A stretch of 44,738 nt of DNA, taken from sequence record PP925847.1. One strand, written 5' to 3'. Under the pieces are notes generated by a model. It saw only the letters and a program-made list of their open reading frames with translations, searched no databases and was not told the origin of the DNA. The position numbers and the translations under genes are program-made. Positions 25,606 through 26,896 of this stretch are shown here, piece by piece (position 1 is the first letter of the stretch; each line of letters begins with the position of its first letter). Source of the DNA: Escherichia phage Zumzum.

Positions 25606-26163
25606 TCATTTCAGAATCACCGAGCGCGGGTCGATGGCCTTCATGCTGCCGTCTCGTTCCACCCGGATGAATCCAACGCCGTATTCCTGCGCATGGCGCT
25701 GTGCGTTTGTCACGGCATCAAAGCGATTGACGATTTCGTGCGCGGTGCGTTTCATCCTCGCCTGCACCTGGTGGGCGTCGTAGGTTGCGTAGGCTGGCTG
25801 TGACTTGCGGAACTCAACGCGCTCATGCGGCTGGCGGTCACGAAGGCAGTATTTTCGGCCCACTCGCTCGTAGTTGACCAGCCCGAAGTAAGTCATACCT
25901 GCTACGCCATCCTTGCGGGATTGCATACGCAGGCCATGAAGACCGACATATTCAACGATCCACATACTACCGTCGCGAATATCACGCAGCACATCTCCGC
26001 GCTCGATATCGTGAGTGAGTACGTCGAAGAACTGCGGCAGCGTGTGTTTCGGTGCCCGCCATACCCGATTGCCTGCCGCGTTTTGTAGGCGGACGTAGGA
26101 ATCCAGGGTCTGGATCGGCTTCATGATACGACCATCGTGCTTACGGCGGAATAGTAATTTCAT
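25606..26163 (-). CDS. hypothetical protein (185 aa)
   Basis: ORF with a GAGGAGA ribosome-binding site before ATG 26161-26163. Confidence 0.55.
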   Translation of the reverse strand: MKLLFRRKHDGRIMKPIQTLDSYVRLQNAAGNRVWRAPKHTLPQFFDVLTHDIERGDVLRDIRDGSMWIVEYVGLHGLRMQSRKDGVAGMTYFGLVNYERVGRKYCLRDRQPHERVEFRKSQPAYATYDAHQVQARMKRTAHEIVNRFDAVTNAQRHAQEYGVGFIRVERDGSMKAIDPRSVILK

Positions 26164-26287
26164 TGCTCTGTCTCCTCAATTTCTTCGATAGTCTTCGTGT
26201 CGCCATCGCATACCGTAGCGATGCCGTTTTGTTCGTAGTCAAGTTCGCACATATGCAGGTAGATAAACTCCTGCGAGAATCCGCCTA

Positions 26288-26560
26288 TCAACATTTGCTC
26301 AGTCTCCAGTGTTTGCCTACCCGCTCGACTGCGGGCTTCCGGCGGATGGTAATACGGATTCCAATTGGTTGCAAGGACGTTTTGACGGCAAATCCATGCG
26401 CCCTGGCGAACTGGTGCAAGTAGCGAGTCTGCGTTAATGGCTTCACATCATCGCGGTAGCACCAGAATACAGAATCCCCCGCATTCGCATTCTTAGCCCA
26501 TATTCGTATGCAATGCAGTGGAATATGCCACGAAAGCTGTTTTGCTCGTCTACGGCCCAT
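26288..26560 (-). CDS. hypothetical protein (90 aa)
   Basis: ATG 26558-26560 with an AAGGGG ribosome-binding site 10 nt after the upstream stop. Confidence 0.4.
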   Translation of the reverse strand: MGRRRAKQLSWHIPLHCIRIWAKNANAGDSVFWCYRDDVKPLTQTRYLHQFARAHGFAVKTSLQPIGIRITIRRKPAVERVGKHWRLSKC

Positions 26561-26569
26561 TTTGGCCCC

Positions 26570-26896
26570 TTATTTCGCAAGCTGGGCGAATAGTTCGCGC
26601 TGGGCTTTAATCCTGGCAACGTTTGTCGCGGCCGTCTCGCCGATCCCGAAGCGGTAAGCCAGGCGCTCACGGGAAAATGCAAGCGCGTAGTCCTGGATTG
26701 CGTTCGCCAGTGGCTGGATCTCCGCCATCGAGTCGAAGCGGCGCTCCAGCATACAGACGATGGCCTGCTGCGTGACGCGAACAACGGACCACGCTGCCGA
26801 TAGTCTTTCGACCGCTTCCGCTCCTTCACCGGCGAACTCCGCCGCTTCTTGTGCCGCCGCCATAGCCATTGCGTAATTCCAGATAATCGCTTTCAT
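26570..26896 (-). CDS. hypothetical helical protein (108 aa), first gene of the minus-strand late block
   Basis: ORF preceded by a promoter-like element. Confidence 0.55.
   Translation of the reverse strand: MKAIIWNYAMAMAAAQEAAEFAGEGAEAVERLSAAWSVVRVTQQAIVCMLERRFDSMAEIQPLANAIQDYALAFSRERLAYRFGIGETAATNVARIKAQRELFAQLAK

Follow-up and report, generated by a model that had tools for sequence, protein, structure and literature searches.

Dhillonviruses such as SECphi18 and Bas14-18 now serve as standard test phages in work on anti-phage defence and are therapeutic candidates, and about half of their genes are without known function. Ksap1, the trigger of KpAvs2, is a 74-amino-acid (aa) protein of SECphi18 encoded between the methyltransferase and phosphatase genes (PMC11564622), and anti-Tmn corresponds to ORF35 of phage SM_S22 (PMC11846954). 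The portal protein is sensed by RAZR (PMC13017515), and the tape measure protein is targeted by SNIPE (PMC13190303). In the accessible part of a further source, escape mutations map to SSB for Retron-Eco8 and to DNA polymerase for Borvo, while other escape mutations of SECphi18, SECphi4, and SECphi6 affect the primase-helicase and a protein of 56 aa whose gene lies close to that of the polymerase (10.1101/2022.08.27.505566). The three genes considered here encode proteins of 108, 90, and 185 aa and occupy positions 25,606 to 26,896 of Escherichia phage Zumzum (PP925847.1; the whole stretch of 44,738 nucleotides is referred to as the window), between the lysis cassette and a helicase-primase gene followed by a repeat-rich intergenic hub. 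Like anti-Tmn and Ksap1, their products are small, genus-restricted proteins of the same phage genus that belong to no recognisable family. However, anti-Tmn and Ksap1 are different genes in different places, and anti-Tmn is patchy in its distribution whereas the three genes are universal.

Comparison with related phages allows it to be stated with high confidence that these are real, core, and co-transcribed genes. The closest record to a ~2-kb query around the locus is vB_EcoD_Over9000 (95% identity). The query matched 158 phage records (80-95% identity), nearly all from Escherichia or Shigella phages of Dhillonvirus, and the window is therefore taken to be a ~44.7-kb virulent siphophage genome of this genus, of the HK578/SO-1/SECphi18 type. 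Among the 156 records that contain the helicase-primase at an identity of at least 80% (tblastn), taken to be the Dhillonvirus set, the 108-aa and the 90-aa genes were each found in 156 and the 185-aa gene in 155 (tblastn). None of the three proteins had a tblastn match in any other genus, and nothing similar to them was found in 5,426 complete E. coli genomes and plasmids. Large protein collections yielded 431, 112, and 20 clusters; every one of them comes from Dhillonvirus-like contigs of ~44 kb or from short fragments, and none contains a Pfam domain. When the 185-aa family profile was run without filters against 1.84 billion representatives, only 22 clusters were returned, almost all of them alleles or fragments of that family; what remains is a spurious plant protein with B3 repeats and an 87-aa relative of the C-terminal motif, located on an uninformative 1.6-kb contig.

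An earlier sequence-only reading of the locus had raised the idea that the three genes may be accessory cargo subject to turnover. As they are present in 155-156 of the 156 records with an invariant order, they are not accessory cargo but, by this comparison, genus-core genes restricted to Dhillonvirus. That reading had itself named universal conservation together with an assigned core function as the outcome that would speak against it; the conservation was found, the assigned function was not. Twenty loci were aligned (the window, 11 IMG/VR contigs, and 8 GenBank phages), and in all of them the order is helicase-primase, hub, 108-aa, 90-aa, (44-aa), 185-aa, 48-aa, and 99-aa genes, terminator, and holins. 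The comparison for gene turnover that had been suggested showed turnover to be confined to small slots between genes. Three slots vary in length: from the hub to the 108-aa gene (463-820 bp), between the 90-aa and 185-aa genes (-4 to 337 bp), and 3' of the 185-aa gene (-4 to 237 bp). The slot of the 44-aa gene, which is missing or replaced in several loci, is the most variable of the operon.

All three genes are under purifying selection, and two of them, encoding the 108-aa and 185-aa proteins, are diversifying rapidly. The median pairwise ratio of nonsynonymous to synonymous substitution rates (dN/dS) is 0.49 for the 108-aa gene, 0.26 for the 185-aa gene (0.32 pooled), and 0.16 for the 90-aa gene, compared with 0.04-0.06 for the helicase-primase, class II holin, and endolysin genes. 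Alleles of the 108-aa gene are discrete, with either ~95% or ~50-60% identity to the window copy, and 77 of the 156 records hold a homologue with less than 60% identity. The 185-aa proteins of SECphi4, Gluttony, and JLBYU60 retain only 36-47% identity, while the 90-aa homologues mostly remain at 80-95% among the 156 records. Despite this divergence of the 108-aa and 185-aa alleles, the flanking genes are 97-99% identical throughout, and the pattern is best described as allele replacement within a fixed scaffold, not as gene turnover. Fast evolution and sharply different alleles of the two genes partly favour a role in host interaction.

Searches for related families assigned no function. Neither the single sequences nor the family profiles of the three proteins gave anything above threshold in Pfam, NCBIfam, PADLOC, or PDB sequences, and no PADLOC model matched any of the six proteins of the block at E ≤ 1. 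The finding of the earlier reading that there are no assignable motifs is thus upheld by both sequence and fold searches. The proteins do have catalogued families, which they match end to end: the 185-aa protein aligns with phrog_10243 (residues 1-185 to profile positions 1-184 of 184, E 3.5e-103), the 90-aa protein with phrog_12533 (residues 1-89 to 1-89 of 89, E 7.6e-57), and the 108-aa protein with phrog_9839 (residues 1-108 to 1-101 of 101, E 5.5e-49). These families themselves carry no functional annotation, and therefore membership supplies no mechanism. In the relatives, the whole interval is labelled 'hypothetical protein', and a literature search by locus tags, accessions, and PHROG identifiers found no mention of the genes.

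Predicted folds and charge weakly point to helper proteins that bind DNA, RNA, or RNA polymerase (RNAP). The reading tentatively favoured here is that the operon encodes small regulators or adaptors, whose targets would be nucleic acid or the transcription machinery of the host at an early or middle stage of infection; for at least two of the three proteins, an association with nucleic acid or RNAP is conceivable but far from assured. The 185-aa protein, through barrels most like the RNAP-binding Tudor domains of UvrD/PcrA and CarD, might dock on RNAP or on DNA or RNA, and the 90-aa protein might bind nucleic acid. In the 108-aa protein, an invariant C-terminal hairpin resembling a helix-turn-helix (HTH) would contact a conserved target, possibly the genus-invariant TTGGTTGC sites that overlap its own putative promoter (i.e., Cro-like autoregulation), whereas the partner of the rapidly evolving N-terminal hairpin would be variable.

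The 185-aa protein is strongly basic (isoelectric point (pI) 10.2, net charge +13). In the best of five AlphaFold2 (AF2) models, residues 1-104 have a predicted local distance difference test score (pLDDT) of ~88 and form two consecutive strand-strand-strand-strand-helix-strand units, while residues 105-185 are unreliable. The predicted model displays the five-stranded barrel fold of Tudor/SH3-like domains, and the two units probably represent tandem SH3/Tudor-like barrels; confidence in this fold is moderate, not firm, because the other four models are poor and the alignment is shallow. The barrels are followed by a poorly modelled linker and helix and then by a conserved C-terminal motif, G[VI]G.I.V.PDGSMK..DPRSV. 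Besides this motif, MKLLFR.K..G at the N-terminus, HD[IV]..GDVLR, and L[VI]N[YF].RVGR.Y are conserved across the deepest alleles. In Bas84, an N-domain of the 185-aa type is fused directly to the C-terminal motif. For the window protein and 62 family members, Pfam listed none of the RNAP-interacting Tudor families (UvrD/PcrA C-terminal domain, CarD_TRCF_RID) at E ≤ 10. Unlike the PcrA/UvrD C-terminal domain and the RNAP-interacting domain (RID) of CarD/Mfd, the barrels are tandem and stand-alone, with no helicase or CarD C-terminal domain, and, in contrast to the Tudor domains of these proteins, they belong to a strongly basic protein with an unrelated conserved C-terminal motif. RNAP binding by the 185-aa protein specifically is a doubtful proposal.

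A weak profile match of residues 136-164 to RNA polymerase omega (RpoZ/Rpb6; E 0.3-0.8, common pattern I.NRFD.V..A.R.A) was rejected, because NRFD is not retained in divergent alleles (SECphi4, Gluttony) and Pfam lends no support. One IMG/VR contig encodes a 114-aa paralogue of the barrel region just upstream of the 185-aa gene (locus L014, positions 1268-1612), and Bas84 and JLBYU60 contain an extra 56-aa gene 3' of the 185-aa gene (positions 2872-3042 of locus L019 and 3052-3222 of locus L017). The barrel module appears to duplicate and shuffle locally.

The 108-aa protein has a confident model. With an alignment of 60 homologues, AF2 predicts a four-helix bundle (helices at residues 2-20, 26-53, 57-83, and 88-107) with a pLDDT of 96.3 and a predicted template modelling score (pTM) of 0.88. 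The final 40 residues of the family are near-invariant (RERLAYRFGIGETAxTNVARIKAQRELFAQLAK), and dN/dS differs between regions (0.59 across residues 21-62, 0.19 across residues 66-108). The C-terminal half of the bundle is invariant and HTH-like, and the N-terminal hairpin is hypervariable. Sub-threshold HTH matches recur in the family, with HTH_Tnp_4 (PF13613) in 41 of 60 members and lambda Cro (PF09048) in 9 of 60, and with best family-wide E-values of 0.026 and 0.064, respectively; for the window protein, HTH_Tnp_4 scores 13.6 bits and does not reach the cut-off of 27. The likeness to both families consists of weak repeated matches within the invariant RERLAYRFGIGETAxTNVARI segment. The position of the gene also recalls that of cro, in that repeated sites overlapping its putative promoter lie immediately upstream. 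Unlike the compact tri-helical HTH, however, the model is an up-down bundle with helices of 20-27 residues, and unlike small phage HTH regulators, the protein is not basic.

The 90-aa protein is the most basic (pI 11.4, net charge +15) and has no match in Pfam or PDB. Between it and the likewise very basic 185-aa protein, the operon encodes a 44-aa protein with a pI of 4.05 and a net charge of -10, which may serve the two basic proteins as a partner or a mimic.

Several points weigh against a regulator or adaptor function. None of the three proteins can be linked to a function by significant sequence homology, and the assignment of the 90-aa protein comes from its charge, not from a structural model. 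For the 185-aa protein, four of the five AF2 models are poor and the alignment has a mean identity of 81%; moreover, its homologue in phage EE09 is absent from the 24 lysate and 4 infected-cell phage proteins detected in a sparse dataset (PMC10673088). Finally, an anti-defence or defence-trigger role would also suit the allele replacement and high dN/dS seen in two of the genes.

The layout of the block is given in Table 1. The three open reading frames (ORFs) reported by the sequence-only reading were confirmed on the minus strand, each with an ATG start and a preceding Shine-Dalgarno sequence, as was the repeat-rich hub directly upstream of them. The minus-strand block does not begin with them, since the helicase-primase gene and a 109-aa HTH gene precede them on the same strand, which switches only at ~30034-30301. 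The interval also holds small genes of 44, 48, and 99 aa that had been overlooked; they are annotated in relatives and recognised by PHROG profiles. The 48-aa gene is well conserved (93-100% identity across the aligned loci, dN/dS 0.11), and the 99-aa product has a hydrophobic N-terminus and is labelled 'putative membrane protein' in JLBYU60.

Table 1. Coordinates of the operon, its putative control elements, and other features of the window
Feature	Position	Strand	Remarks
GCGGGACA cluster, six copies	10283-10533	minus	between tape-measure gene and next gene
Intrinsic terminator hairpin	25052-25081	minus	12-bp stem and T-run; U-tract runs into holin start codon (25046)
99-aa membrane-like gene	25099-25398	minus	phrog_2531; final gene before terminator
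48-aa gene, basic	25463-25609	minus	phrog_13628 (E 1e-37); ATGA overlap with stop of 185-aa gene
185-aa gene	25606-26163	minus	phrog_10243
44-aa gene, very acidic	26160-26294	minus	phrog_15977 (E 1.6e-26); annotated in Over9000 and SECphi18
90-aa gene	26288-26560	minus	phrog_12533; ribosome-binding site AAGGGG
Internal ATTGGTTGCAA copy in 90-aa gene	26364-26374	plus	antisense; encodes L63-Q64-P65 and part of next codon
108-aa gene	26570-26896	minus	phrog_9839; ribosome-binding site GAGGA
Promoter-like element, paired TTGGTTGC	26919-26957	minus	-35 TTGCGT (26953-26948), 17 bp, -10 TATATT (26930-26925)
Repeat-rich intergenic hub	26897-27429
GCGGGACA cluster, six copies	27168-27262	minus	in hub, 3' of helicase-primase
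Helicase-primase gene, 754 aa	27430-29694	minus	upstream of hub
HTH gene, 109 aa	29705-30034	minus	upstream of helicase-primase
Homologue of 56-aa protein of SECphi18/SECphi4/SECphi6	~34025-34193	plus	tblastn match split over two frames
Anti-Tmn homologue, 154-aa ORF	39954-40415	plus	88% identity to SM_S22 CDS0035 (tblastn)

The three genes probably head a transcription unit that would run from a TTGGTTGC-type promoter through the 108-aa, 90-aa, 44-aa, 185-aa, 48-aa, and 99-aa genes to the terminator. The octamer TTGGTTGC occurs in 19 copies in the window (1.4 expected), and the 11-mer ATTGGTTGCAA, with at most one mismatch, in 10 copies (0.98 expected). The TTGGTTGC copies are mostly intergenic and often paired next to TATATT or TATAGT (e.g., at 18, 16119/16133, 26926/26957, 27328/27363/27417, 30232, 33111/33127, 36932, 39874/39891, and 41559/41564), and they recur at corresponding positions in SM_S22 and SM_A8. 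Copies in the sense orientation precede early-side genes, namely a cor-like gene, the unit of the HTH and helicase-primase genes, the anti-Tmn homologue, and the 108-aa gene; the octamer looks like a genus-specific class of early promoter or operator. At the 108-aa gene, the -35 TTGCGT is supplied by the first copy of the pair and the -10 TATATT overlaps the second, an arrangement conserved in 14 of the 20 loci; the other six have extra small genes there. The element was not listed by a promoter scan because its 8 of 12 consensus positions lie below the threshold of the scan, and the promoter for the unit at ~26925-26957 should be regarded as putative.

At the other end, the terminator hairpin has a folding energy of -24.1 kcal/mol (z-score -5.35) and is identical in sequence in the 20 loci. 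The region 25046-25087, likewise identical in the 20 loci, holds the only plausible Shine-Dalgarno sequence of the holin gene (GGGA), and the 5' arm of the hairpin overlaps an extended -10 element, TGATATAGT (25087-25079, minus strand), that is identical in all of them as well. Transcripts arriving from upstream would terminate and mask the ribosome-binding site of the holin gene, whereas those initiated at the -10 within this region would not include the 5' arm. Lysis and the expression of late genes could be switched by such an arrangement.

The motif copy noticed earlier within the three-gene stretch and taken as a hint of an internal promoter is a genuine ATTGGTTGCAA copy, although not at 26365-26375 as given and, because it lies on the plus strand, antisense to the genes. 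It is present in all 20 loci, where its codons TTG-CAA-CCA are invariant while adjacent codons vary, and its position is conserved in SM_S22 and SM_A8. Synonymous diversity at the site (0.21-0.25 in a 7-codon sliding window) is similar to the gene average of 0.21, and some other stretches of the 90-aa gene are more constrained. No usable -10 element accompanies the motif on the plus strand. As TTGCAA is its own reverse complement, it can also be read as a -35 element on the coding strand, where a weak TTGCAA-N17-TACCAT (TACATT in most relatives) matches 8 of 12 consensus positions. A promoter or regulator site within the 90-aa gene is thus possible.

The hub contains six iteron-like copies of the octamer GCGGGACA and three 32-nucleotide repeats that include TTGGTTGC. 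The second six-copy GCGGGACA cluster is located ~17 kb away, and the pair resembles, as we presume, the bipartite ori/crr-like arrangement of helicase-primases of the P4-alpha type. No Rfam family and no tRNA was detected by scans anywhere in the window.

Candidate identities from the known Dhillonvirus functions were rejected. The published length and location of Ksap1 fit none of the three genes (PMC11564622). CDS0035 of SM_S22 was identified as the anti-Tmn gene by comparing SM_S22 with SM_A8, and since an ORF 88% identical to it is present, the window phage carries an anti-Tmn homologue; this is the sole tblastn homologue in the window and lies outside the interval, with a TTGGTTGC-type upstream element as found for the 108-aa gene. 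Altogether, Ksap1, anti-Tmn, the RAZR trigger, the SNIPE target, and the escape mutations for Retron-Eco8 and Borvo all map outside the three genes. The window also encodes a homologue of the 56-aa protein of SECphi18, SECphi4, and SECphi6; according to the accessible part of the supplement, this protein or its upstream region is mutated in defence-escaper phages (10.1101/2022.08.27.505566).

The main alternative explanation, regarded as rather unlikely, is that one or more of the products are anti-defence or host-takeover proteins, which inhibit a defence system or are sensed by it, and that an arms race drives the allele diversity. It would account for dN/dS values of the 108-aa and 185-aa genes 5-10 times those of the flanking genes and for discrete 108-aa alleles and a 185-aa protein down to 36% identity next to helicase-primase genes that are 97-99% identical. 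The promoter type shared with the anti-Tmn homologue points the same way, as does the fact that small genus-restricted Dhillonvirus proteins include both anti-Tmn (PMC11846954) and the defence trigger Ksap1 (PMC11564622). Counter-defence genes are, however, typically patchy (anti-Tmn is missing in SM_A8), so that universal presence and fixed synteny would be unusual, even if compatible with a target that is ubiquitous in E. coli. Furthermore, overall selection is purifying, there is no match to PADLOC or any other family, and no escape mutation of SECphi18, SECphi4, or SECphi6 in the accessible part of the Stokar-Avihail supplement maps to the three genes. Replication-origin accessory proteins are a further, unlikely reading, in which the basic 90-aa and 185-aa proteins would bind the hub repeats and help the helicase-primase to start replication. 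The position of the genes immediately downstream of the helicase-primase and the hub, the strongly positive charge of the two proteins, and their universal conservation are all as expected for replication functions, and the second GCGGGACA cluster suggests a bipartite cis-acting arrangement. Nevertheless, the proteins have no similarity to initiator, loader, or origin-binding families, and a drop of the 185-aa protein to 36% identity would not be expected for the partner of a conserved site while the helicase-primase and the repeats are nearly invariant.

A lysis-associated function, such as regulation of timing or SH3b-like binding to the cell wall, is highly unlikely. The block adjoins the holin-endolysin cassette and ends with the gene of a small membrane protein, but a strong terminator separates it from the holin gene, none of the three proteins has a signal peptide or a transmembrane segment, and lysin SH3b matches rank below the Tudor matches. 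The probability that the ORFs are spurious and lie in a non-coding spacer is practically negligible. Annotation is lacking and alternative-frame ORFs overlap them (e.g., 26443-26829); still, the pattern of conservation refutes this reading, with length and frame kept in the 20 loci and in ~156 genomes and dN/dS well below 1, in addition to the ribosome-binding sites and an AF2 model with a pLDDT of 96. Within the favoured reading of small regulators or adaptors, the most specific version is improbable and would go furthest: the 185-aa protein would represent a new class of phage factor that docks on host RNAP by tandem UvrD/CarD-like Tudor barrels, and the 108-aa protein would read the TTGGTTGC sites. 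The former might then displace UvrD/Mfd or help the polymerase to read through the conserved terminator that precedes the lysis and late genes, and an arms race with a protein of the host or of a defence system might explain the hypervariable face of the latter.

As it stands, the result improves the annotation of an ordinary block of conserved hypothetical phage genes and does not amount to a discovery; its modestly interesting features are a basic protein with predicted tandem Tudor-like barrels and an allele-dimorphic four-helix bundle. Two of the three universal genes are the fastest-evolving of their neighbourhood, and deletion of the three would be likelier to uncover a core step in regulation or host takeover than one isolated counter-defence. 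Should the 185-aa protein with its Tudor-like barrels bind RNAP, it would constitute a new structural solution among the few phage transcription hijackers.

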